DNA of 29,794 nt from Albugo candida (lineage: Eukaryota). The notes under the pieces are model-generated. The model was not told where the DNA came from and ran no database searches. It saw only the letters and a program-made list of their open reading frames with translations. The stretch covers positions 372,001 to 401,794 of the forward strand of contig JBDOQK010000028.1 in the NCBI GenBank assembly GCA_040437565.1, written 5' to 3'. Positions 1,207 to 28,252 of this stretch are shown piece by piece. Position 1 is the stretch's first letter. Each line of letters starts with the position of its first letter. Position numbers and translations under genes: made by a program.

Positions 1207-4200
1207 TCAGGATCGCATCTGTGTAAAACTAGTCGACCCATTAAATGCCGAACTGGACGACTGACCAAAAGGTGAAGCTGCAGAAGCACCAAACCCGTTG
1301 CCAAAGCCTGTACCTGCCCCTTGCGAGGATGCAATGCTGCCAAAGCCAGTGCCAACAGAGCGAAAGGAGCCGAAGCCGGAACCAGTTGTCGTAGATGGCT
1401 TGGTAGTACTCGAAGCAAAACCGCCAAATCCACTCCCGCTTCGTTGCTGAAGAGTGTTCGTCCCTCCGAACACTGCCGTCGTTCCACCAAAGGAAGCAGC
1501 CGAGTTTCCTAATGTGGAGGAGGCTCCAAATACTGGCACTGCTGTATTTCTCGATGTCGATTCTGAGCCGAACACTGATCCCGACTGTGGGGTGAGTTGA
1601 GTCAAAGATTGCTTACCATACTTCTTTTCGAGTAAACCGAATAGCTCCGTCTCACGCCCACTATATTTGGCTAAAGTCGTGTCGACGTCCTTTAGTTTTC
1701 CGGGATTATACTTTTGATAGAACTGAACAAGTCTTTCGCGATGACTGCTAGTCGTTCCTCCAAATGGTTTACTTATGGCCATTGGCTGAGAGGGTTTACT
1801 GAAGGTAGATCCAGGTTCCGATGTCCCAAAATTCGCCATGCTGCTAGTGTTTGGTCTTGTATTTGACGAGTTTCCGAATGACGTCAGAAAAGCAGTGCCG
1901 GGAGCACCAGCTGTACTGGAATTCGTTGATGGTGATGCTTGTATCGGGAAAAAAGTGCTTGTGTTGCCAAATGGGCTCGAATTTGTCGAGTGCCGCAAAG
2001 GGGCTACCGTATTCGGCACGGATTCCACTTGAACTTTATACTTATTACTAAGGCTTCTGAACAATTCATCTTCTCTTCCTTTGTACTTGTTCAGTGTCTT
2101 GTCAACATCAGCCAACTTTGACGGATTGTGTTTTTCATAAAACTTGACTAACCGTGCTCGTACTTGTGGATCGATTCTTGTTGTAAACGCTTCAGTTTGT
2201 GCGTTGGGCTTAGCTATAGAGCTTGGTATCTCTTTAGCAACGACATGTACTGGATTGTTTGCTCCTGTCGTGGTCGTTGTCTTGCTCATGGCATTGACTT
2301 GCCATGCAGAGACGTCACCACTTGATGTAGGTACTTTGTTTGGGATCACACCGCTTTCGATAAACTCCTTGACCAACGTCTTCACATTCTGTCGAGTTGC
2401 AAGTCCGTAGGTCACGAACAAACTCTCCAAAAGCTCACTTTCGCGACCTCGATACTCACTCAGCTGTCTCGCAACATTTGCTACTTTTTCGCCATCGATT
2501 TTAGTGTAAAACGCTTCCAGTCGTTGACCAAAACCGATCGATGGCGCAACGGTAATTCTGTTCACACCTCCGACAATCGGTGCTAGTCGTATTGAGTCAT
2601 TTGAATTATTTTTGCTCTTTGCGGAAACATCAGATGAGGTACAGGAGTCGCCTTTCCTGATATTTCGATGCATTGTTGATTCCAAGGGTGATGATTGATC
2701 ATCTGAGTGAATACTTTTTGTGTGCGTATTGTGAGCTTGTTGCGTACCAGCAACACTGACGGATTTCTTAGCATTTTCTGGGTTAATTTTACCAAATTCG
2801 ATTTGTCTTGGAGTCGGGACTGGAGATGGGATCGTGATTCGTGCACTTGACATAAGCTTACTGACAATTTGATCGGGATCTTTCCGGATTATTGCAGAAG
2901 AGATACTCTTCTTTCGCATAACGACAGTAGGGCCCAACATCCGACAATTTATGCCACCGTTGCACAGCTTTGCAAATCGCTCATGCATTGCTGCAGTAGA
3001 ACGCTCTGCCTCAGCTAGCCGTCTCACCATCTCTTTCGTACTTTCTGCTTTATCGCTAAAGACATTCCCAATCGGAAGTGTGATTTCGGGAATGTGTTGG
3101 TCTTGAACATGCAATGCTTCTATCGCGAGTGATAAGTCGCACACTTTGTTGTACTCTGTCTTTGACTTCTCGTAAGTCTGTTTCAACACGCGAAACAAGT
3201 TCTCCGCACGAAACGACGAAATAATCTGGTCATTGTTAGTTGCTTCCTCTAACAAAGTGAGATGCTGCTCCAAGTCATGACAGCATCTATTGATTTCAGC
3301 AATTCTTGCTTTCAGTTTCCTTCGCATCTCTGAAGATTCCATATCTAACGGCTGCTCATTCATCAATTGCTTCCATTGGACATTCTGCAGACCCTGGAAT
3401 AGCTCATAGCCAAACGCGATTTGTTCATGAACTTCACTATCGCTCCCAATCACATAGAGAGTGTCATTTTCAATTTTTTGACGATTTTCATCGAGCGTAC
3501 TGACGTCACGACACAAAGTAATTATATTCTGCTTCAATTGCCTCACTTCAATAAGAGGCTTTGCCTGAGCAGCGGAATTTTGCCTTGCTACATGCTCAGC
3601 GTTCTTCGTGGACCGCTGGACAGATGTCTCAAAGTTGTTGACAAGCTGTGCCATGTACTGCATTATATCGGATTCTGTCTCACTCGGAGCTCCAGAATGC
3701 GCCCATTTCACATTGCTGATCTTCATATCCTGTGCTGTTGACTTTGAAATGACGATAAATGGAGATGGATCCTGGGAGGAATCTTGTGAAATTGCGGAAT
3801 TTGAATGTTGCGCGGCATATGCATCATTCTTCACCTTATAAGGCACTTGAGTCTTTGCTGAAGCATTGGGCGGATACATCAGCGTCAGAGCTTTAGGCTG
3901 TAAAGGTTTCGGCTTGACTGAGGTATCTGGTGGATAAGCGGATACAGCGAGCGCAGGAATGGTTGTAGTCCTAGATGAAGCAGACTTCGAAGCTTGTAAT
4001 AATGGAGGCTTGGCTTTCGTCGAGGTATCTGGTGGATAAGCGGATGCAGCGAGCGCAGGAATGGTTGTAGTCTTGAATGAAGCAGACTTCGAAGCTAGTA
4101 ATAATGGAGGCTTGGCTTTCGTCGAGGTATCTGGTGGATAAGCGGATGCAGCGAGCGCAGGAATGGTTGTAGTCTTGAATGAAGCAGACTTCGAAGCTAG

Positions 4201-7200
4201 TAATAATGGAGGCTTGGCTTTCGTCGAGGTATCTGGTGGATAAGCGGATGCAGCGAGCGCAGGAATGGTTGTAGTCTTGAATGAAGCAGACTTCGAAGCT
4301 AGTAATAATGGAGGCTTGGCTTTCGTCGAGGTATCTGGTGGATAAGCGGATGCAGCGAGCGCAGGAATGGTTGTAGTCTTGAATGAAGCAGACTTCGAAG
4401 CTAGTAATAATGGAGGCTTGGCTTTCGTCGAGGTATCTGGTGGATAAGCGGATGCAGCGAGCGCAGGAATGGTTGTAGTCTTGAATGAAGCAGACTTCGA
4501 AGCTAGTAATAATGGAGGCTTGGCTTTCGTCGAGGTATCTGGTGGATAAGCGGATGCAGCGAGCGCAGGAATGGTTGTAGTCTTGAATGAAGCAGACTTC
4601 GAAGCTAGTAATAATGGAGGCTTGGCTTTCGTCGAGGTATCTGGTGGATAAGCGGATGCAGCGAGCGCAGGAATGGTTGTAGTCTTGAATGAAGCAGACT
4701 TCGAAGCTAGTAATAATGGAGGCTTGGCTTTCGTCGAGGTATCTGGTGGATANNNNNNNNNNNNNNNNNNNNNNNNNNNNNNNNNNNNNNNNNNNNNNNN
4801 NNNNNNNNNNNNNNNNNNNNNNNNNNNNNNNNNNNNNNNNNNNNNNNNNNNNGTAATAATGGAGGCTTGGCTTTCGTCGAGGTATCTGGTGGATAAGCGG
4901 ATGCAGCGAGCGCAGGAATGGTTGTAGTCTTGAATGAAGCAGACTTCGAAGCTAGTAATAATGGAGGCTTGGCTTTCGTCGAGGTATCTGGTGGATAAGC
5001 GGATGCAGCGAGCGCAGGAATGGTTGTAGTCTTGAATGAAGCAGACTTCGAAGCTAGTAATAATGGAGGCTTGGCTTTCGTCGAGGTATCTGGTGGATAA
5101 GCGGATGCAGCGAGCGCAGGAATGGTTGTAGTCTTGAATGAAGCAGACTTCGAAGCTAGTAATAATGGAGGCTTGGCTTTCGTCGAGGTATCTGGTGGAT
5201 AAGCGGATGCAGCGAGCGCAGGAATGGTTGTAGTCTTGAATGAAGCAGACTTCGAAGCTAGTAATAATGGAGGCTTGGCTTTCGTCGAGGTATCTGGTGG
5301 ATAAGCGGATGCAGCGAGCGCAGGAATGGTTGTAGTCTTGAATGAAGCAGACTTCGAAGCTAGTAATAATGGAGGCTTGGCTTTCGTCGAGGTATCTGGT
5401 GGATAAGCGGATGCAGCGAGCGCAGGAATGGTTGTAGTCTTGAATGAAGCAGACTTCGAAGCTAGTAATAATGGAGGCTTGGCTTTCGTCGAGGTATCTG
5501 GTGGATAAGCGGATGCAGCGAGCGCAGGAATGGTTGTAGTCTTGAATGAAGCAGACTTCGAAGCTAGTAATAATGGAGGCTTGGCTTTCGTCGAGGTATC
5601 TGGTGGATAGGCGGAGGAAGAGGTTGTTGGTAAATGGGAAGTCGGCATATTTGCTTGCGACGCTGGAGATGTATCCAAATGGTTTGTCGAGGTCGACGAC
5701 TTTGACGATACGAATTCTCCTTTTATCGACACTTTCAACGCGCAGTTAGAGGCTGTCCCTAAGTTGGAAGTCGACAGCAGAGACGGTTGAGCCTTTGAAG
5801 AGGTATCTGGAGGATACATGGTGGGCGACACTTTCACCTGTGAAGAATCAACGTTGATGGAGGCACAAGAGGGGGCAAGGATGAAGTTTTTCGATAGGTT
5901 GTCAGCCGGGAGCCGAGGCACTTGAGCCTTAGCTGAGGTGTCTGGAGGGTACATTGCTGCCGATAATTTCGGCTTTGGAGCCTCTTCCTCTGTCGAGGTA
6001 CTCGGTGCATGTGTAACGATAGGAACTGCCGTGTCACATGATGCAAGTTCCTCATTGATGGAAAAGCACACTGAAGAGAGATACTTTTCATGCGGTGAGG
6101 TTACTTTGCCACATGGTCGAAGGCTCGCGACCGGGCTAGTCCCTGCTATTGGAGTGCTTACATCAGTAATTGTGCAAAATCCCGGTGACTTTTGACAGTC
6201 GTCGTCCTCACTATCTTCATCTTCGCTATCTTCTGCAAAGAGCCAGTTGGTATACCAGTTCACAAAGATGTCTTCCGGTAGTATACCATCCACGAGCAAG
6301 GGTTTTAACAATGGAAGATGAACTTCTTCACAATATGTAGATCCAAGCGCTTTGAAAAGTTGACTGAAGTCTTCTGAATGGATTGCGCCCAATTCCGAAA
6401 CTGTAGTTTGGAAAGCGTCCCGTGCTGCCTTTCCCGCCTCAACACGTTCTGCTTCTTCATCAGCGCTTTCATCTTCTTCAGCGAATTCATTATCACCATC
6501 TTGACCATAGGACTCCGATTGCGTGGACGGATTGTTTACCTTTGCAGAATCTTTTAGCTGTTTAGCTGCGACATTGGTACTGGGTGTTGCAGTGAGCCCA
6601 CTAAAATCGAAACCAATGTTCTGATCCGCCAGTGTTGCTATCGATTTTATAGAAGTTGAAGATAATCCAAACTTATATGGAGCTGCTGAATCTTTTGTTT
6701 CAAATTTAAAACCTGAGCACGAGCTGTCTGCACGCGTCACCTGAGATTGGTTTGGATTCGGTATTGTACACGCTACGCATCGAAGTGCCTCGGAGTTGTC
6801 ATTTTGTACTGAGCAGCTCGCGCATCTCCAACTTCCTTCTCTAGGCATAAATTGCGAGAGAGGATTCTTGCTTATTGGAACGTCAGTCGTATCAGAAGGT
6901 TTTATTTGTTCTTCTTGGAGTGACATTTGATTTATTGCGTGGGAGCTGTACCACGCTAAGAACTCTTTTTTCTTGATGCAACCAGATTCACGAAATTGTT
7001 GTTGTATTGCTTCAGCCGACAACCGTGTGGTCTTGCAAGATGCATTTAGCAAATTAACAAATTCGCCAGTTCGTGCAAAGGGAATTTCTTCAGTATCATT
7101 GACGTCAATTTCCTTGAATACTTGTAGTGCATGCGTACAGTCCTTTTCAGCGGCCTCGTCTATATCACTCGGCTGAGATTGTGCTTGACGTTTAAAAACA

Positions 7201-8737
7201 TCAATCTTGCCAGTTCGTATCCCTTGTTGCTTTAATAACTTCTTGTCTGGTTTGATCAAAAAACCAATTTCTTCCCCAAAACTGAGATCTACTAGTGCAA
7301 AACTGACTACTAGACCTGATGTCGTGACGCTTGAAAGAATGGGGCATGGTGGATAGAGACCTCGGTCTAAGTTAACTGATTTGCTAGAATTAAGAACGAG
7401 CTGTAGCCCGACTGGTAACGACTCATCATCATTCACATCCATCGGTAAACGTGCTTGATACTTCTCTTGTGGTTTCCAAACTTCCCAATCATTTGAGTCT
7501 GGATCAGCGACAAGAAGCTCGATATCGGCGCTGAGTGAGCATCCGACGAAGAACATTCGCCTATCCGAATAATAGGTAAGATCACTTAAGCAATGTCAGG
7601 AGAGTGATAACTTGCCATTCCTCGAGAAAACACGAGTAGTATTGATGTTTGCGACAATCCATTGCTTCTGTGAAGGCAACGACTTCGTCTAGTGCAATTA
7701 TTCTTCTGTGTTCGTACAGAAACGCTTGCACTACTTCTTCTTCTTGTGTAGTATTCAAGGCTTTGTATCCCAAAAACATAAGCTCCTTTTCGGCCCAGTT
7801 GATGTGATGAACTATGTATCACATATCCCTTATAGAAATACACTTTGAAGTTTTGGCAACGTACCAATAAAATTACCAATTTCAGTGTCGAGAGACTCGG
7901 GAGGGGCAATATGTTCTGAATTGGTGGAAATAGACGAGCGATCATATATCCATACATTTCCATCATTGCTACCAAGTGCAATTTGCTTCCCGCATGGACT
8001 CCAACATGCTACAGCAGCAACACATGAGAGATTGTAGCGGCAATAATTACATTCTAGAGCCCACCAGAAGTTGCCGAGATGGAGTCAATGACATCTTTAC
8101 CACCGTCCAAACGATACAAAAAAGTTTCATTTCCGCTCGTGACTGCTAATAATTCCATCTGCTCGTCATTTTGACAGTTCCAAGGACGCCATGCCATCTC
8201 CAATAAAGTATTCCCAAAGTGTGCGAGGAAAAATGTTGCTTCTGATTTCTTCGTCTGTAAAATGGCTGTCTCGTAAAAGTAAACATTCTGATTGCAAGCA
8301 ACGGCTAAGATTTGCTCATTATGCGAAAGCGATATGTAATACGGAGAAGAGGGTAGAGCAATTTCAAAACAATATGCAGATTTTGTGCGATCATCCTCTT
8401 TCTCTGTCAGCGTAGGAAGCGCTACATGCGTGACATTCAGTCCGTGATCCAATGCTTCATCTCGCGCTTTGAGATACTTTTGACACAGATTCTCAGTGAT
8501 TCTATACTCACACACCATAAAGCCTACAAATATATGGTTAGAATTTGCTCCGATCAGACGTATGGACTTGCCATTTCGAGAGCAAATGTAGCTCAATCCA
8601 GATCGATTTCCATGCTGGAAAAGCTGTACGTTTACGCAGTTGTTGAATTCTAGAACTTTCTCAACAAACTGGGAATCAAAGTCCAGACTAATGCGTCCTG
8701 TGTCCAACATCCGCACATGTTCCACATCACGGTCCAT
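1207..8737 (-). CDS. NUP214: Nup214/Nup159-like FG nucleoporin. Proposed exons (minus): 8737-8572, 8523-8065, 8008-7865, 7811-7616, 7560-1207 (last exon spans the N gap at 4753-4852). At least ~2425 aa if the gap is 59+102n nt.
   Basis: Splicing joins ORFs 8054-8758, 7582-7779, 4707-7556 and 1207-3879 in consistent phases (1,1,1,2). The spliced product gives ATSACWSPCGKQIALGSNDG and YSCFLEEWRMFFVGCSLSADIELL, resembling Nup214 propeller motifs (CWSPKGKQL; YIEEW...S.EV). It also has a central coiled coil and a C-terminal S/T/G-rich FG tail (GFGGF, SPFG, AFNGSTSFTQMRS). 3880-4752 is open and in frame with the 890-aa ORF. Confidence 0.85.
1618..2526 (-). repeat. Three dispersed ~40-aa helical modules RL..FY.K.(N)P.KL.DVD.TL..Y.GRE.ELF..L..KY (about 2407-2526, 2038-2160, 1618-1743)
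   Basis: Direct comparison within the 890-aa translation. Confidence 0.85.
3919..5610 (-). repeat. Coding tandem array, 102-bp unit (YPPDTSTKAKPPLLLASKSASFKTTTIPALAASA), about 15-16 visible units, interrupted by an assembly gap
   Basis: gaggtatctggtggata recurs at exact 102-bp spacing (4022, 4124 ... 4736; 4879 ... 5593). Only the edge units are diverged. Confidence 0.97.
6752..6840 (-). other. RanBP2-type zinc finger within the nucleoporin
   Basis: GSWRCASCSVQNDNSEALRCVACTIPNP fits W-x-C-x2-C-x3-N-x(6-7)-C-x2-C. Confidence 0.85.
7561..7615 (-). other. Intron 4 (55 nt, GC-AG)
   Basis: TG|GCAAGT...GATAG; removal bypasses a stop and yields FLEEWRMFFVG in frame with the 949-aa ORF. Confidence 0.8.
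7812..7864 (-). other. Intron 3 (53 nt, GT-AG)
   Basis: G|GTACGT...CATAG; restores frame (FIVHHINWAEKELMF). An alternative in-phase donor GTAATT lies 12 nt upstream. Confidence 0.75.
8009..8064 (-). other. Intron 2 (56 nt, GT-AG)
   Basis: G|GTGGGC...CTGTAG; removal bypasses a stop and creates SACWSPCGKQ. Confidence 0.85.
8524..8571 (-). other. Intron 1 (48 nt, GC-AG, in frame with no stop)
   Basis: ATG|GCAAGT donor, CTAAC branch point, TTTGTAG acceptor. Because it is in frame it could also be retained. Confidence 0.65.
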
Positions 8738-11330: not shown

Positions 11331-12423
11331 AAATACTTGCTCACCTCTGTTCAAGTAGCAAGCTCGAGACCATGAACGAATAACAACAAAAAAGCAGCAT
11401 TTTGAAAGAAAACACTAGTCGTTTCGGTGAAGTCATAATCTTTCTCTTCCTATCTTTTCTGTACTAATTCAGCTTTTTTGCTGAATCTGAAGCGTTTGAT
11501 GTCGCAAAAATGATCTTTTGTCTTATTTCAGAAGCGATCAATTTCCTCCAGCTAAAAGAGCAGTGGTGTAGCATCCATATAATCGTGAGCACACATAAGC
11601 TCAATGAAAATGTGACTAATCATAACAGAGGTGGCTTCATAAACAAAAAAGCCTATGTCACAGCAAGCCAAGTCGTCTAATGCAGTAGCGAACATCATTC
11701 ATTCATTTAAGCGGCAATATTACAAATACAAGAACGGACGCATCAAAAGTAGCTTGAATATTTTTTCAAAAAATGTTTCTTTTAGCGAAAAGTCGAAGAA
11801 TCTGTCTGAACGACTCGACTGGTATACAATCAAAAGAATTAAATCAACCTGTATAGCACAGGAGCATGTACCAAATCCAGCAACTAGGAGAGATGTACCA
11901 CGTCAAAGTATTGTTTCAATCAAAAAGCCTTCAGCCTAGCCGAGAAAGAAAATTTGTCTCAGACTCCTCGAAGCAGACATACTGATCAATCACTTCAGAT
12001 TGTGGCTGTATAAGAACATGATCTTGGTTAAGATGCCATCTAAAAATCGGAGACGAGTGCAAGCATGGTGTATGATGCTGTGAGGAAGCCTTCATGATTG
12101 ATAAAAACATTCAGCACTGCTGGATGGCTTGTACAGTGCCAAGAGTATGTGAAGAGCAGCACATGACGGCCTATCGAGGTGTTTCTCCTATCCTGCATTA
12201 AAGATTGCTCGAGTTATTATACACTCGAATGACAATGATTAGAAAGAGTAGGAGGTGTTGTATCCTTAAAGTGATAAGTGTCGTGTACAAGTTACGGTCA
12301 TTGTCAAAAGTGTGTGAGAAGGCGCTGTTGGAATTGGCCATCTGGGCGACTATTCGTGTAATTTGTGACAGATGGCGCCGACTGACGGATGTGTCACTTT
12401 TGCATGGATTATGAGTGCGGCTG

Positions 12424-12651
12424 TGTAACGCCGGAAGGAGGAAGCAGAGGAAGATAATTGTTGGCGGAGCTGTATTTTATACCTGGTTCATGAGAGTGAA
12501 GTGTAGAAGCGATCAATAACTAGTAGTGCATACGAGTTGAACAAACTAGATCAGTATTGAATTAAGGAATCCTGGTTCACCTATCTGATTGGCTAATCCA
12601 GTTCTCCAACTATGTAGAGCTATGCATGCATGTACAACGGAGGTTGTTACA
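12424..12651 (-). repeat. Gypsy 3' LTR (228 bp)
   Basis: TGTAAC...GTTACA termini; PPT GGGGGGA immediately internal (12652-12658). Confidence 0.93.
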
Positions 12652-15600
12652 TCCCCCCGGAATTGACATCTCGTTGTCGCTTCTTGAAATCGGCGATGAG
12701 AACATTCCAATGAGAAATATGACGAATATCTTGTGCCGCTCCCATATAGCTTCGTGCTCGAGTAATCAATGCCACTTCACGAGCCATTCAGGTTTACGCT
12801 TAAATTGACGCTTCTGAAAATGCTGTTCTATGATGTGCATCGTGTCGCCACTGTCCTCTTCGAAATAGGTTGGGATGATTTCGAAATCGGACGAGTTTGA
12901 AATCGCGGTAGATTTCCCACATAGTGACTCAGCACATCAATATCGAAAGTAGAGTTCAATCGACTCATACTCCGAGGAAGCTTCAATTGCGCAACATTCG
13001 AGTCGACCATTTTTACAATTTGAAATGGTCCAACTTTGCAAGAAGCTATTTTGGCGCGTTTTCCATCAATGCCTTGTGTCAAATGTTTCGCAGGTATGCA
13101 ACGAGTATCCAACATGATCAAATCTCCAATTTTGTAAGTAATATCGGTGCGTTTTCTGTCGTAGCACTTCTTTTGACGATCCTGAGCTTGAAGTAAATGT
13201 TTCGTGGTTAGATCAATGATTTCTTGACGACGGCTTTGGAAATGTTTTGCACACTCAGCGATTGCACGTTGCACCTGAGTTGTGACGCAAGGAGTACTTA
13301 GCGAATTCAACGGATTGCGTTCTTTGCGACCAGTATCAATTCGAAAGGTGACATACCAGTTGATGCACTGACTAGCGTGGAATGAGTATATTTAATTGTC
13401 CCTAAATAATCGGACCAATCACGTCCATGATACGAAATCATACAGCATAGAGAGTCTTCCAAAATCAGATTTTGACGGTCTGTTTGTCCGTCGGCTTGTG
13501 ACCGATATGAAGTTGTCATATGCAGAAGAATTCCCATCAGCTTGGCAAGAGCGAATTAAAACTTCAAAACAAACTTGGAATCTCGATCGCTGATAATAAT
13601 CGATGGTAGAACATGATGATAAACGACACAATCAAAGAAATGACACGCTGTAATATGGGCATCATCATTGCGATTGCACGCTCTATATTTTGACCGTTTG
13701 GACAGTTTGTCGACAACTGTCATGATAGCATCGAATCTGTTTGATTTTGGTAATCCCGTAATGAAATCCATAGAGATAACTGACCAGAATTTTTCCGGAA
13801 TTGGGAACAGAATCATTTATCCATTCTTGCGAGCGTTCCTGTATTTCCAGCAAGGGCATGTTTCACAACTCCGTACGTAATATCGAACGTCTTGATTAAT
13901 TGTAGGCCAACGGTACCATTGAGCGATGCGTAAAAATGTTCGTTGAGCACCAGGATGTGCGGCAATGTTGGAGTAATGAAAGCATGCGATGATTGAAGTT
14001 AGCAGATAATTATCTTTTCTGTTCGGTACACACACACGCATCATCATTTGTGACTTGAATTAAAGCAAAATATATCCATTGGCAAATTCCTTGTAAACCG
14101 AATTGTACGAACCAAGCGAGCTCCAATTCTGAGATTCTTGTGTCACATTAACAGCCACGGATGAAGGCTCGGTTGCGCTTATAGAACGAGACGTACTTGA
14201 TTTTTCAAGTATATTGCCATTAGTAAGCTTCAAATCATCAACATTAAAGTCGCTGATAGAATCCTCCCTCTCGAGTATATGAAAGTGTGAGGATGAACCT
14301 GCGCAATTATGAACATCGAACTGTTGATTAGACACGACACCGTTGGCAATTCGGAACCTTGACGTGATAAAGCATCGGCTACCACATTAAAATGACCTTG
14401 AAAGTGATGCAGCTTGAATGTAAACTGCGAAAAGAATGTCAAATATCGAGCCAGCTTTGGCGAAACTTTCGGACGATGAAGAAACCATTGCATGCCGTGG
14501 TGTCTGTGTAGATGTCAGCTTCACGACCATAAAGATAATGACGCCACTTTTCCAATGCAAGCTTGATTGCAAAAAGTTCCTTTTCATGTGTCGGCCAATT
14601 AAGATCATGAATCCTCCATCTTCTTGGAAAAGAATGCAATGGGATGATAGCAACCAGAATGAAGCTAAGAAAGAGCACCACCAATACGATATCCAGAGGG
14701 GTCCGTTGTCACAATGAAACTATATTAGGCTGAAAGCACCGTATCCCGTCTGCTTTGCGTAGTTAAGCAGCCTCAAGCTCGGGTAGTACTCGGGTGGGTG
14801 ACCACCGGGGAAGTCCGAGTGCTGTCAACTCATTTTGACTTCAACGTCCTGAAGAGCGGCCTTGAGTTGCTCAAACGCATGAGTCTGGACATCCTTCCAT
14901 TCCCAAACATGTTTGTTCTTGACTAGAGGGCCAAGTGGTAACGCTAGAGTTGCGTAGTCACGAATGAACCGACGATAGTAACCAGCCACACCAAAAAATT
15001 AATAGTTGTTTCTGATTTGTAAGAGTCGGCCATGTCGCAATAGCTTCTGTCTTTCGAGTATTCACTCTAGTTCCTGAGCCGAAATGGTATGACCAAAAAA
15101 ATTCACTTCTGACTGGCCAAAACGACATTTGGACTGATGGCAGACTAACTTCTCACGCCGAAGAATTCCAAACAGAATTCGAAGAAGGTCAACATGTTCT
15201 TCCAGACTAGGGGGAACACAAAAACGTCATCTATATAGACAACAGTGAATTTGTATCTCGCAAAAAGTACTCGCATAAGACGAGACCAAAAATCAGGAAT
15301 ACCAGACAGTCCCATAGGAGCCACACACGACTGATAAGTTCTCGCATGTGTGCGAAAGGCGGTATAGTTGCGGCTTTTGAATGCGATCCGCGTTTGATGA
15401 TAGCCTTCGGCCAGATCTAGAACTGAAAAGATGACACAACCACACATCTGATAAGAAAGTTCGTCGATGGGAGGAAGTGGTATCTTCGGAATAATCGTCT
15501 AAAAATTGACCTACCGGTAATCAATAAACCATCGAAGAGGTAGATGCGCATTGTCAGAGCGTACCCATTCGGATCGTGATATGTTTTGCTAAGTAATAGG

Positions 15601-17280
15601 ATCCTTTTTAGATATATCATATATATTCGAAACCCGTGGAGAGTCTGAAACTTCGATTCAACCTTTCCTGAGCTTTTCCGCAACAAACATGTCAAGTGCA
15701 TCTTGTTGACCTTGGATAGGCGAAACGGGGCACAGTTGCTAGGTATAGAATCTGGTCTGATATAAAGATCAAAGCCAACACGACGTTCAGGTGGAAGTTC
15801 ATCAGGAAGTGTCTCTGGAAAGACATATTTATACTACTTCAAGAGCGTAGTAATTGATCGAGGTACCGTATCACCCTCCGTCATCAAAGCGCAGACCTTT
15901 ACGCGATAGACTTCATCGTATTCCCGATTCTTGACTTTGCGTTCAAATTTCACTGCAGCAATTTCCACATCAGTTTCACTACTTGTACCCGTACTAGTTT
16001 GTGTCGAAGGCAACCGCTGATGCGGAAATGAAATTACATGCAAACGCCAATCAAGCTGCGGTTGGCACTTGATAAACTACGGTTTGCCCAAGGTGACATC
16101 ATGAGAAGAGCCCAACGGCCATTCCATGATTTGCAAATTGCGAAATTTAAAGCGATCAAATATGATAGTTGCAACACCCTTTTTGATGGAGCGAGTTTTT
16201 GTAGAAGTTTCATCAAATCTTGTAACTTGGGAACCACCAGAGTGTGGCATTTTTTTCACCAAGCCGGGACGGACGACATTACAGGTTGCACCGCTATCAA
16301 ACATAATAGTGACAGGTGTTCCATCACAAGTTCCTTGTTTACGAATAAGTTCGTTCTCTGGATGCACCGGATCCTTCTATCTCGACAATATCCACTTCGT
16401 TCCCGAAACTTGTAATAGAAGGTAACGAGTACGTCGCTCTTGGAGACGTGGGAGCATTGAAGCTTACAGATGATTGTTCATGTCGAGTACCGTAAGATTG
16501 CTTCTTTTCATTCTTGAGCTTGTAACATTGCTCGATAACATGACCGGTTTCTTACAGTAGCAGCATTTCTCGACGAAGAAGTTGATGGTGAGGAGCGACG
16601 ATGTTTTGGGTATCCTGAATCGATCTTCACTAGTTCTGGTATATTCTCCTGCGTGACCGGTGATGCAGATGGTGATGATGATAATGCTGATTAGAATTTG
16701 CACGTGATCGTTCCTGCGTGTATACTGGTGGACGGTAATTCGTCCCCCGGACACGATGAGATCGATCTTACTCCAACGCAATCTTCATGGCCTGTGAAGC
16801 CGTAGCACACCAGCGATATTGAACTTGTTCACGTATGGGACTTACTCGTCCTCGTGTAAAGTAAGTAATCCTATCCAAGTCGCTCATGTCCGTAACTTGC
16901 ATTATAGCGTCACGGAAACGGAAAACGGGAAATATAGATTTCGAAGTTCGGATTGCTCTTCTGTTTGAGTGCGTATAATTGATCACGCAAGCATTCTTGC
17001 AGATCGGGGATACAAATTTATCATTTACTTGAACGATGAGGTCTTGCATGTCTTCGATAAATGGCTTCTTCAATTTGCACCAAGCTGCGGAATTTCCATT
17101 GAAATTGGCGGTCGTGATTGCAAAAATTCGAGCACTTTGATTGACATCGCGCCAGTCGATATTCTTTGCTTCGAAGTACTGAGCCAGTTGATCAAAGTAC
17201 AGATTGATGGATTCGCCCATTTTACCATCAAATTGAGGTAAGCTGATCCCTTCACTTTTATTTCACGCTTGGTCATAGCT
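12652..17280 (-). pseudogene. Gypsy gag-pol, fragmented by many stops and frameshifts
   Basis: ORF fragments 16768-17220, 16077-16367, 15145-15447, 14439-14684, 14230-14493, 13817-14047, 13556-13816, 13307-13537 and 12828-13310. The chromodomain is MHIIEQHFQKRQFKRKPEWLVKWH*LLEHEAIWE (~12735-12840). Confidence 0.92.
14722..14829 (+). rRNA. 5S rRNA: 5S rRNA copy lacking ~10 nt at the 5' end (probable pseudogene), followed by tcatttt
   Basis: ATATTAGGCTGAAAGCACCGTATCCCGTCTGCTTTGCGTAGTTAAGCAGCCTCAAGCTCGGGTAGTACTCGGGTGGGTGACCACCGGGGAAGTCCGAGTGCTGTCAAC closely matches oomycete 5S as I recall it. Box A (AGTTAAGC) and box C region are intact. The 5' strand of helix I (complement of GCTGTCAAC) is absent. 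Confidence 0.93.
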
Positions 17281-17521
17281 TCAAGGAATTGCTGCTGTTA
17301 TTCGACCAATTCGATCAATGTTTTCGTGGTGTCGTCGGGGGACCATCCTTGGGAGTTCAATGACGTCATGATAACCCAAAAACAAAAAAAAGTCCGACCA
17401 AATAGAGCCAGAGCAAACGACAAACACTCGTCGAGCGGCTTTCCCAATGTCGTGACGCTAAACAGCGCGTAAGAAAAACTCCTTCCGGACGACCAACTAC
17501 CAATGAGTTATGGGACCAGCA

Positions 17522-17531
17522 GCTGCTACCA
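17522..17531 (-). promoter_or_regulatory. Gypsy primer-binding site TGGTAGCAGC (tRNA-iMet 3' end)
   Basis: 2 nt after the LTR end; TGGTAGCAG is the complement of the initiator tRNA 3' end CTGCTACCA. Confidence 0.8.
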
Positions 17532-17533
17532 GT

Positions 17534-17704
17534 TGTAACGCCGGCAGGATGAAGCACACGAAAATAATTGTTGGCGGAGCTGTATTTGATAAAAATGGAA
17601 AGTGAGATTTTTCATTAAAGAATTCTGGTTGACCCATCTGATTGGTTAATCCAGTTCTCCAGCTATATAGAACTATGCATGCATGTACAATAGAGGTTGT
17701 TACA
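17534..17704 (-). repeat. Gypsy 5' LTR (171 bp)
   Basis: Homologous to 12424-12651 with a shorter, replaced middle segment; followed on the minus strand by AC-TGGTAGCAG. Confidence 0.93.
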
Positions 17705-17926
17705 GGCTGTTATTGATGTCACTTTAGTATGGTGTATACAGAACGATTGCGTATGAGAAAAGGAGTTGAAAAGATATTGGAGAGGTTGAAAGGTTGCTAG
17801 TTTACAATATGATAATCAGTATCAAATTTTCCTCTTGTGGTTAATCCGATTCCTTGTCTGCCAATAGGCAACATCATCACTTGAGTGACGAATCTGTTTC
17901 GAACAGATTCGTAACAAGAGGAAACT

Positions 17927-22153: not shown

Positions 22154-22391
22154 GGATGGAGCGTGTGTCAAAGGAAGAAAATACATCAACGTTAAGATGA
22201 CTAGTTCACTATTTGCTAATCTAAAGCTTATTCCAAATTTTCATGAAGTAACGTTGCCAGCATTACTTACATTAGTTACATGACTCACATTTGTAATTTT
22301 TGTGAGCCATCATCTAAAACTTCCCTGAATGTTCTCAGAGAATTCTCTGAATTTGGTGCGTCTACATGAGCGAGGATTGTTTTGTGCAACA
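22154..22391 (-). repeat. Copia 3' LTR
   Basis: Starts TGTTG on the minus strand after the PPT; aligns with 28010-28252; left end approximate. Confidence 0.8.
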
Positions 22392-23853: not shown

Positions 23854-24429
23854 TCATGGCTTTTGATAGATTCGGAATACTTCTATGGGTTCCTATTTGC
23901 GATACATGCGTTCTCTATGCTAATTCGAAGTCGTTTTATCTGCGACGGTCTTCATCAAGTGTTTCCTTTTTTTATTAGTTCAGCTCCTTACGGAACTGTT
24001 TCATCGAAAGTTGCAGAAGGGGGTAAAGCTCTGTCTCCGCGGGAGGTTGATTATCCACTAGTGCCGAATAGATAATGCTCACTATTTGAATNNNNNNNNN
24101 NNNNNNNNNNNNNNNNNNNNNNNNNNNNNNNNNNNNNNNNNNNNNNNNNNNNNNNNNNNNNNNNNNNNNNNNNNNNNNNNNNNNNNNNNNNTCATGGCTT
24201 TTGATAGATTCGGAATACTTCTATGGGTTCCTATTTGCGATACATGCGTTCTCTATGCTAATTCGAAGTCGTTTTATCTGCGACGGTCTTCATCAAGTGT
24301 TTCCTTTTTTTATTAGTTCAGCTCCTTACGGAACTGTTTCATCGAAAGTTGCAGAAGGGGGTGAAGCTCTGTCTCCGCGGGAGGTTGATTATCCACTAGT
24401 GCCGAATAGATAATGCTCACTATTTGAAT
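23854..24429. repeat. 238-bp direct duplication flanking an N gap (probably an unmerged contig overlap)
   Basis: 23854-24091 and 24192-24429 are identical except one substitution seen (ggtaaagct/ggtgaagct). Confidence 0.85.
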
Positions 24430-28009: not shown

Positions 28010-28252
28010 TAATAGCGCTTGTGTCGAAATGAAAAAAATATAGAAGTGATTGTGCCATTCCCGTAAAGATCATTAGTTCACTATTCGCTAATCTAAGCCT
28101 TATTCCAACTTTTCTCGAAGTAACACTACTAACATTACTCCCATTAGTAACAAGACTAACGTTTATAATCTTTGTAAGTCATCATCTAGAACTTCCCTGA
28201 ATGCTCTCAGATAGTTCTCACGATGTAGTGCCTCTACATAGAGTTAGGATTG
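28010..28252 (-). repeat. Copia 5' LTR (outer ~12 nt missing)
   Basis: Aligns with 22154-22379; abuts the PBS. Confidence 0.8.

Follow-up and report, generated by a model that had tools for sequence, protein, structure and literature searches.

Among the closest described counterparts of the sequence reported here is the tRNA-like element (TLE) of HIV-1, which is reported to be a folded mimic of the anticodon domain of tRNA-Lys3 and to bind LysRS (PMC5113203; PMC5689005). As in HIV-1, sequence that resembles the anticodon region of the primer tRNA lies here, in sense orientation, beside the PBS (primer-binding site) within the leader of the genomic RNA. The present sequence differs from the HIV-1 element in that no hairpin is predicted and in that it reproduces 22-29 letters of the tRNA almost literally and is not a structural mimic. 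Retrotranscribed tRNA-Gly beside HIV proviruses, described in a further report (PMC12220202), is a different phenomenon. In half-tRNA priming (Drosophila copia, Ty5, fungal Copia elements and Helenus), it is the anticodon stem-loop of initiator tRNA-Met (tRNA-iMet) that pairs with the PBS (PMC10886601). The same stem-loop is involved at the present locus, but elements with half-tRNA priming carry the complement of the arm as their PBS, whereas here the arm is in sense and its antisense score of 16 is at the level of shuffled sequence. The same source describes the TRIMp3 elements (Cassandra, Helenus and Ajax), whose LTRs contain tRNA or 5S sequence in the form of a near-complete gene with its promoter, unrelated to the PBS (PMC10886601). 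Sequence derived from a Pol III RNA likewise lies inside an LTR retrotransposon here, but, in contrast to TRIMp3, it is a 23-nt internal piece of a tRNA, is derived from the primer itself, and is located in the leader of an element that encodes pol, whereas TRIMp3 elements are short and non-autonomous. The block covers approximately tRNA positions 26-53 and is without the promoter boxes of the D-arm and T-loop.

Ty1 (through boxes 0, 1 and 2.1) and Ty3 (through the PBS and sites at the 3′-end) make additional contacts with their primer by means of sequences that are antisense to the T- and D-arms. Both resemble the present element in using initiator tRNA-Met as the primer and in having a PBS that starts with TGGTAGC near the LTR; here, in contrast, the additional segment is in sense, and, with the two tRNA types compared, complementarity outside the PBS that exceeds shuffle level is limited to weak matches with one of them (the L091 type, see below), the relevance of which is doubtful. 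The chimeras produced by copy-choice of RT, in retroviral recombination and between LINE-1 and small RNAs, share the origin that is proposed below, in which RT jumps at a microhomology from its template to a cellular RNA, copies this RNA and goes back. To our knowledge, there is no described case in which the anticodon arm of a captured primer tRNA has become fixed in a family, and the literature searched yielded no account of a PBS to which a piece of the primer tRNA is fused in sense. On balance, the block probably represents an inherited sense piece of the element's own primer, initiator tRNA-Met, and is a fossil of a template switch rather than a working mimic, a reading to which we attach somewhat more than even confidence on the basis of the sequence comparisons described here. 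This corresponds to the "captured primer tRNA" that was one of two possibilities offered in the preliminary description of the locus, and it is the one we favour.

The block is hosted by a Ty3/Gypsy element on the minus strand of the window (the whole stretch of 29,794 nucleotides from Albugo candida that was analysed), and all of the pol frames of this element are broken. All features of the element given below are on the minus strand. Its 5′ LTR (17534..17704) is 171 bp long, has the form TGTAAC...GTTACA and shows 89% identity to 12561-12651 plus 12424-12481 of the 3′ LTR (12424..12651), which is 228 bp long and carries an insertion of approximately 57 bp relative to the 5′ LTR. A target-site duplication of 5 bp, CAGCC, can be read directly at 17705..17709 on the 5′ side and at its partner, 12419-12423. 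Between the 5′ LTR and the PBS there is, also by direct reading, a spacer of 2 nt, AC (17533-17532), after which the PBS of the window copy starts with TGGTAGCAGC (17531..17522), two nucleotides from the 5′ LTR. The only exact occurrence of TGGTAGCAG in the window is the one at the PBS. A near-match to the PBS start at 7966-7974 was rejected as ordinary sequence with no adjoining LTR. A putative gag frame of 164 aa, open from stop to stop (16768..17262), matches no Pfam family above the cut-off. The broken pol (12828..16376), which is interrupted by many stops and frame changes, gives Pfam matches to PR (16376-16077, E 3.6e-06), RT (15498-15145, E 1.1e-09), RT_RNaseH (14708-14439, E 5.8e-12), the IN zinc finger (14059-13817, E 1.3e-15), the IN core (13816-13556, E 1.3e-03) and a Tf2-type SH3 domain (13391-12828, E 6.9e-11). 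A short polypurine run, GGGGGGA (12652..12658, direct reading), abuts the 3′ LTR. The TG...CA LTRs with a short duplication, the pol order PR - RT - RNase H - IN, the polypurine tract and the PBS just inside the 5′ LTR, the last judged against a natural fetched tRNA that may not be that of the host, are the features of a Ty3/Gypsy element. Self-BLAST of the element against the window revealed no second copy within it, and ARAGORN called no tRNA gene in the window.

A 5S rRNA-like copy of full length is located at 14713-14830 on the plus strand (Rfam RF00001, 75.1 bits, model positions 1-120), antisense inside pol between the RT and RNase H pieces; its helix I is poorly paired and it is followed by a TTTT run. 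The preliminary description had counted this copy together with the tRNA-like block as two Pol III RNA fragments held by one element. The 5S copy is indeed present, but nothing links it to the block, and it lies on the opposite strand.

Read on the minus strand, 17531..17490 consists of TGGTAGCAGC followed by the tRNA-like stretch, exactly as first described. The original count of 23 matches in 29 nt refers to a manual alignment with a conserved eukaryotic tRNA-iMet segment and was recounted by eye. For comparison we used 98 distinct natural tRNA-Met(CAT) sequences from public contigs, called by ARAGORN, which may differ from the tRNA of the host and which are a biased sample, having been fetched by patterns centred on the anticodon loop. 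The 29 nt of the window match positions 25-53 of these tRNAs at up to 24/29 positions, the value being 24 for 4 of the 98 tRNAs and 23 for 3, with a mode of 20-21. When the 45 nt after the PBS were aligned locally with 81 initiator-like tRNAs, again fetched sequences and possibly not those of the host, the sense score was 26, which was reached by 0/300 mononucleotide shuffles (mean 16.3, sd 2.0, maximum 23), and the antisense score was at shuffle level. The sense initiator-tRNA segment that had been proposed beside the PBS is thus borne out, and its resemblance exceeds that of shuffled controls. Local alignment and ungapped matching delimit a sense copy of initiator-tRNA positions 32-53 at 17493..17514, which covers the anticodon loop, the 3′ strand of the anticodon-stem, the variable loop and the 5′ strand of the T-stem.

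Similarity to tRNA in sense is confined to this block and does not exceed shuffle level elsewhere, whether in U5, in the remainder of the leader or at the 3′ end. Antisense similarity to an L012-type tRNA likewise does not exceed that of shuffles, the observed score being reached by 77 (U5), 54 (leader) and 193 (3′ end) of 200. With the L091-type tRNA, antisense comparison gave two weak matches above the shuffle mean, one in the part of the leader that follows the block (score 20, attained by 3/200 shuffles) and one in U5 (score 17, attained by 10/200), and, at the 3′ end, a score attained by 193/200 shuffles.

The stretch is contained in 20 sequencing runs, and the organism, of approximately 35 Mb, is also present in plant and soil metagenomes. 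Contigs of this organism from four runs (X1, X2, X5 and X19) were placed on 17250-17760 at 80% likeness, a threshold at which subfamilies may be mixed. Because 83-115 contigs per run match this interval, the family must be multicopy. Majority letters were taken from separate rows, among the best-supported 40 of 239 differences, so that they describe single positions and the phase over the full block is unseen. Most contigs differ from the window at six positions in the block and PBS, with similar counts in the four runs; in X1, as plus-strand letters, these are 17498 T>G (13 contigs, depth 1688 / 1822), 17502 A>T (11 contigs, depth 1143 / 1296), 17503 A>T (12 contigs, depth 1212 / 1296), 17519 G>A (10 contigs, depth 1058 / 1563), 17522 G>A (13 contigs, depth 1393 / 1563) and 17523 C>G (13 contigs, depth 1393 / 1563). 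The other letter at both 17522 and 17523 is carried by 9-14 contigs per run, representing most of the depth in X1 and X2 and all of it in X5 and X19 (92-100% in the three runs besides X1), and the window letters at these two positions are near-private to the window copy. The change at 17519 accounts for about half to four-fifths of the depth, the window letter being common to approximately one-third. In two X2 contigs, 17524 is immediately preceded by a loose end, ACCAACAAG, by which 17515-17523 are phased. The relationships among PBS, block and tRNA, the multicopy state of the family and its majority letters are direct observations.

The best-conserved part of the family leader is the 66 nt at 17432..17497, directly 3′ of the block, where no majority difference from the window was found among the best-supported 40 of 239 and where the summed contig depth is highest (bins 17430-17501). 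This deepest part of the leader may constitute a conserved cis element, for instance a signal for packaging or dimerisation.

Over tRNA positions 32-53 the family majority, with 21/22 matches, resembles the tRNA more than does the window copy, with 18/22 (best natural tRNA in each case). According to the preliminary description, a family consensus less tRNA-like than the window copy would have refuted its claim; in its core, the claim survives both this comparison and that with shuffled controls. Over positions 25-53, the majority matches 27/29 letters of the L091-type tRNA. The majority block has a sense score of 39 with initiator tRNAs, 27 with 110 other tRNAs and 16 in antisense, and none of its 300 shuffles reached 39 (mean 16.7, sd 2.0). 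The heptamer GTTGGTC occurs twice in the majority string, 23 nt apart, and flanks the sense block. The first copy (17514..17520), which reads GCTGGTC in the window, overlaps the 3′ end of the PBS, and the second (17491..17497) consists of the 5′ strand of the T-stem plus TC. The GTTGG of the sense block is the exact complement of CCAAC, which is the 3′ strand of the T-stem implied by the PBS; such complementarity is expected if the PBS and the sense block derive from one tRNA. A metagenome scan for the majority block and the tRNAs matching it returned 29 loci, all of them tRNA genes and none a Gypsy copy.

In the window, only the first 9-10 nt of the PBS still complement the 3′ end of an initiator tRNA. 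The majority PBS fits an initiator-type tRNA of natural origin (the L002 type) without gaps at 16/17 positions of its 3′ end, the single mismatch being a G opposite U, as compared with 13/17 for the window; 2 of the 98 natural tRNAs reach 16/17, and the mode is 10. The T-stem letters begin exactly at nucleotide 12 of the PBS, in agreement with the frame of the tRNA. Judged from the contig letters and the fit to a tRNA 3′ end, the family PBS is 17 nt long (17515..17531), and the 10-nt appearance of the window copy reflects decay. This bears on the hexamer TGCTGG, which had initially been taken as sense tRNA sequence: in most copies it corresponds to the 3′ part of the 17-nt PBS, from which the window differs at 17523, 17522 and 17519. 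The suggestion that AGCAG(C) of the PBS provided microhomology for a jump over the D-arm finds no support either, for the majority reads AGCACTT; the identity of AGCAG(C) to the 5′ strand of the acceptor-stem follows from the pairing of that stem.

No fetched tRNA combines the best fit to the PBS (L002 type) with the best fit to the sense block (L091 type). The L091-type tRNA fits the PBS at just 14/17 positions, and its acceptor-stem is therefore probably not that of the organism. A pattern scan for tRNAs with the 3′ end implied by the PBS gave 7 loci, 5 of which contain a tRNA according to ARAGORN; four of these are identical to the L002-type sequence and one is its L073 variant. The tRNA that best fits the PBS (16/17) was encountered as L002, L012, L069, L073, L081 and L143-L149, and also as L098-L100 and L108; it is situated on long IMG/VR contigs of giant-virus-MAG type and on their metagenome counterparts, always with the same flanks.

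The window copy itself is an old, dead member of the family, with LTRs that are 89% identical, a broken pol, a PBS reduced to 9-10 nt and a block that retains 18/22 tRNA letters. A match of 20/21 between window positions 17493-17516 (minus strand) and the 5′ end of an unrelated phage tRNA-Ile (L010) was selected by the pattern search itself, over a very large collection. This match, to the acceptor strand and the start of the D-arm, was created by the private changes of the window copy, and it illustrates that decayed tRNA-like stretches can come to resemble other parts of tRNAs by chance.

The arrangement is most simply explained by a double template switch, onto the primer tRNA and back. The founder leader would have begun with an ordinary PBS of 17 nt that complements tRNA positions 60-76. 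Its 3′ end would have received an insertion of approximately 23 nt corresponding to tRNA positions 26-48 (the anticodon arm and the variable loop), with the direct repeat GTTGG(TC) at both borders. The presence of GTTGG in the PBS follows from the reverse complementarity of the PBS to the 3′ strand of the T-stem, and any PBS that reaches the T-stem shares letters with its 5′ strand, since the two strands of the stem pair. In the tRNA, GTTGG would thus be located in the 5′ strand of the T-stem (positions 49-53) and probably also at positions 26-30, where many natural initiator tRNAs of the fetched set have G-TTGG. During minus-strand synthesis, RT copying the PBS region may have used one GTTGG to slip to the primer tRNA (annealed or co-packaged), copied it from approximately position 48 back to approximately position 26, and returned to the PBS at the next GTTGG. 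The plus-strand product would then consist of the PBS, tRNA positions 26-48 in sense, the repeat and the old leader, and this predicted order agrees with the order observed. The product of the switch would subsequently have transposed and founded the present multicopy family. A direct repeat of 7 nt with a spacing of 23 nt is what a template switch guided by microhomology usually leaves behind, as in retroviral copy-choice. Simple read-through of the primer beyond position 58 adds antisense, not sense, sequence. Stops of RT at G26 and A58, positions that we take to be modified in the tRNA, were considered as the borders of the insert and dropped as unnecessary given the GTTGG repeats. The mechanism of switching, its timing and the absence of a function are inferred.

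It is unlikely that the block is instead a functional tRNA mimic kept by selection, analogous to the HIV-1 TLE, which might bind MetRS, eIF2 or Gag/RT and might serve in the placing or release of the primer or in a switch between translation and packaging. In favour of such a role, the position beside the PBS parallels that of the HIV-1 element, both the window and the majority retain the CAT triplet and the greater part of the loop, and most copies of a multicopy family contain the block. Against such a role, minimum-free-energy folds of the window and majority versions contain no anticodon-type hairpin, and the folding energies of both are weaker than those of shuffles (z +0.6 to +2.2), so that the structured, HIV-1-like mimic envisaged as the second possibility in the preliminary description finds no support. 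The CTGGG/CCCAG stem, about which the preliminary description had asked, is not restored in the majority, in which the 5′ strand of the stem is PBS sequence and the 3′ strand has two mismatches. Furthermore, at 17513 (G>T on the plus strand) approximately half of the contig depth has A in place of C as the second C of the loop on the element strand, and across the block the summed depth drops to approximately half its value in the leader immediately 3′ of the block (17430-17501), which indicates that the block is not the best-conserved part. The good match of the majority to the tRNA says nothing about function, because a consensus recovers the founder with or without selection. The block is most likely a tolerated fossil rather than a structured tRNA mimic. 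By analogy with HIV-1, the sense arm might still act as a sequence-level decoy or handle for MetRS, eIF2 or Gag/RT that helps to load tRNA-iMet on the PBS or switches the RNA from translation to packaging, which we regard as improbable; if true, such a role would be an independent, HIV-1-TLE-like invention, reached in one step from a template switch.

A further reading dispenses with the PBS beyond its first 8-9 nt and takes the 40 nt from TGGTAGC onward as one contiguous sense fragment of an initiator tRNA of bacterial or organellar type, comprising its D-loop, anticodon arm, variable loop and T-stem and interrupted by a 2-nt insertion. The same letters would be explained in this way without any junction, and alignment of the majority with phage and bacterial tRNA-Met sequences (L048, L134 and L125) gives from 31/33 to 35/38 matches with one 2-nt gap. 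The spacing of TGGTAGC is native to bacterial and phage tRNA-fMet, in which this motif lies in the D-loop, 8 nt before the anticodon loop, and with the pattern "TGGTAGC, 8-12 nt, anticodon loop" all matches, 7/7 viral and 19/19 prokaryotic, were tRNA-fMet genes. None of these 26 matches, from a scan of viral contigs and prokaryote genomes, was a retroelement. A short PBS would also have a precedent in Ty3, the PBS of which is 8 nt. Nevertheless, a contiguous fragment requires an indel, whereas the PBS reading is ungapped and in frame (TGGT, 7 acceptor letters and 5 T-stem letters); the similarity begins at the position of a PBS, 2 nt after the LTR; block letters 12-16 would equal the T-stem strand further along only by coincidence, with odds of roughly 1 in 1000; and a eukaryotic retroelement packages cytosolic tRNAs, of which the fetched initiator D-loops are without TGGTAGC. 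The combination of a PBS with a piece of the primer tRNA is the better reading, since it is ungapped and in frame, starts where a PBS should, accounts for the two GTTGG as partners of one T-stem and calls on a cytosolic tRNA. A single contiguous fragment, the main rival of this reading, is unlikely.

Equally doubtful is capture at the level of DNA, by which a piece of a tRNA-iMet gene, a pseudogene or a tRNA-derived SINE would have joined the founder leader independently of reverse transcription. The complete 5S-like copy inside pol shows that Pol III-related pieces can land in this element, and the block has no feature that demands an RNA template. An unrelated insertion would, however, not be expected exactly at the PBS and bounded by PBS microhomology, and the inserted piece is only about 23 nt long and has neither tRNA ends nor A/B boxes nor a poly(A)/T tail. 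That a short stretch of tRNA-like composition resembles the tRNA merely by chance is very improbable: short tRNA motifs do recur, as in the 20/21 match of the window copy to phage tRNA-Ile, and CCCATAAC, which occurs once in the window, would alone be expected there 0.35 times by chance, but in neither case, window or majority, did any of the 300 shuffles attain the observed sense score, the majority resembles the tRNA more than the window copy does, and the comparison space was one tRNA, the primer, not a database.

If the template-switch reading is right, the block is a fixed, natural footprint of RT switching from its RNA template to its own primer tRNA and back, guided by a pentamer that any long PBS shares with the T-stem of the tRNA. 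Primer-derived sense sequence could then enter the leader of a retroelement in one step and provide raw material from which a mimic of the primer, comparable to the HIV-1 element, could evolve. Should the block be no more than a fossil, it would be a curiosity, confined to a single family of one small genome. Assignment of primer tRNAs on the basis of the PBS, and scans for tRNA fragments, will misread blocks of this kind, and single decayed copies are misleading as to PBS length, as illustrated by the 10 nt of the window copy and the 17 nt of the family.

Other repeats were observed elsewhere in the window. A tandem array at 3792-5764 consists of approximately 16 copies of a 102-bp unit, many of them 100% identical, and is interrupted by one step of 245 bp; it lies within or between two long minus-strand ORFs (1207-3879 and 4707-7556), and the sole Pfam match in this region is a weak one to a RanBP-type zinc ribbon. 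Two segments 5.9 kb apart, 22190-22379 and 28062-28252, form a repeat pair with 81% identity and may be the LTRs of another decayed element. Finally, a segment of 238 bp (23854-24091) is duplicated exactly at 24192-24429, the two copies being 338 bp apart.
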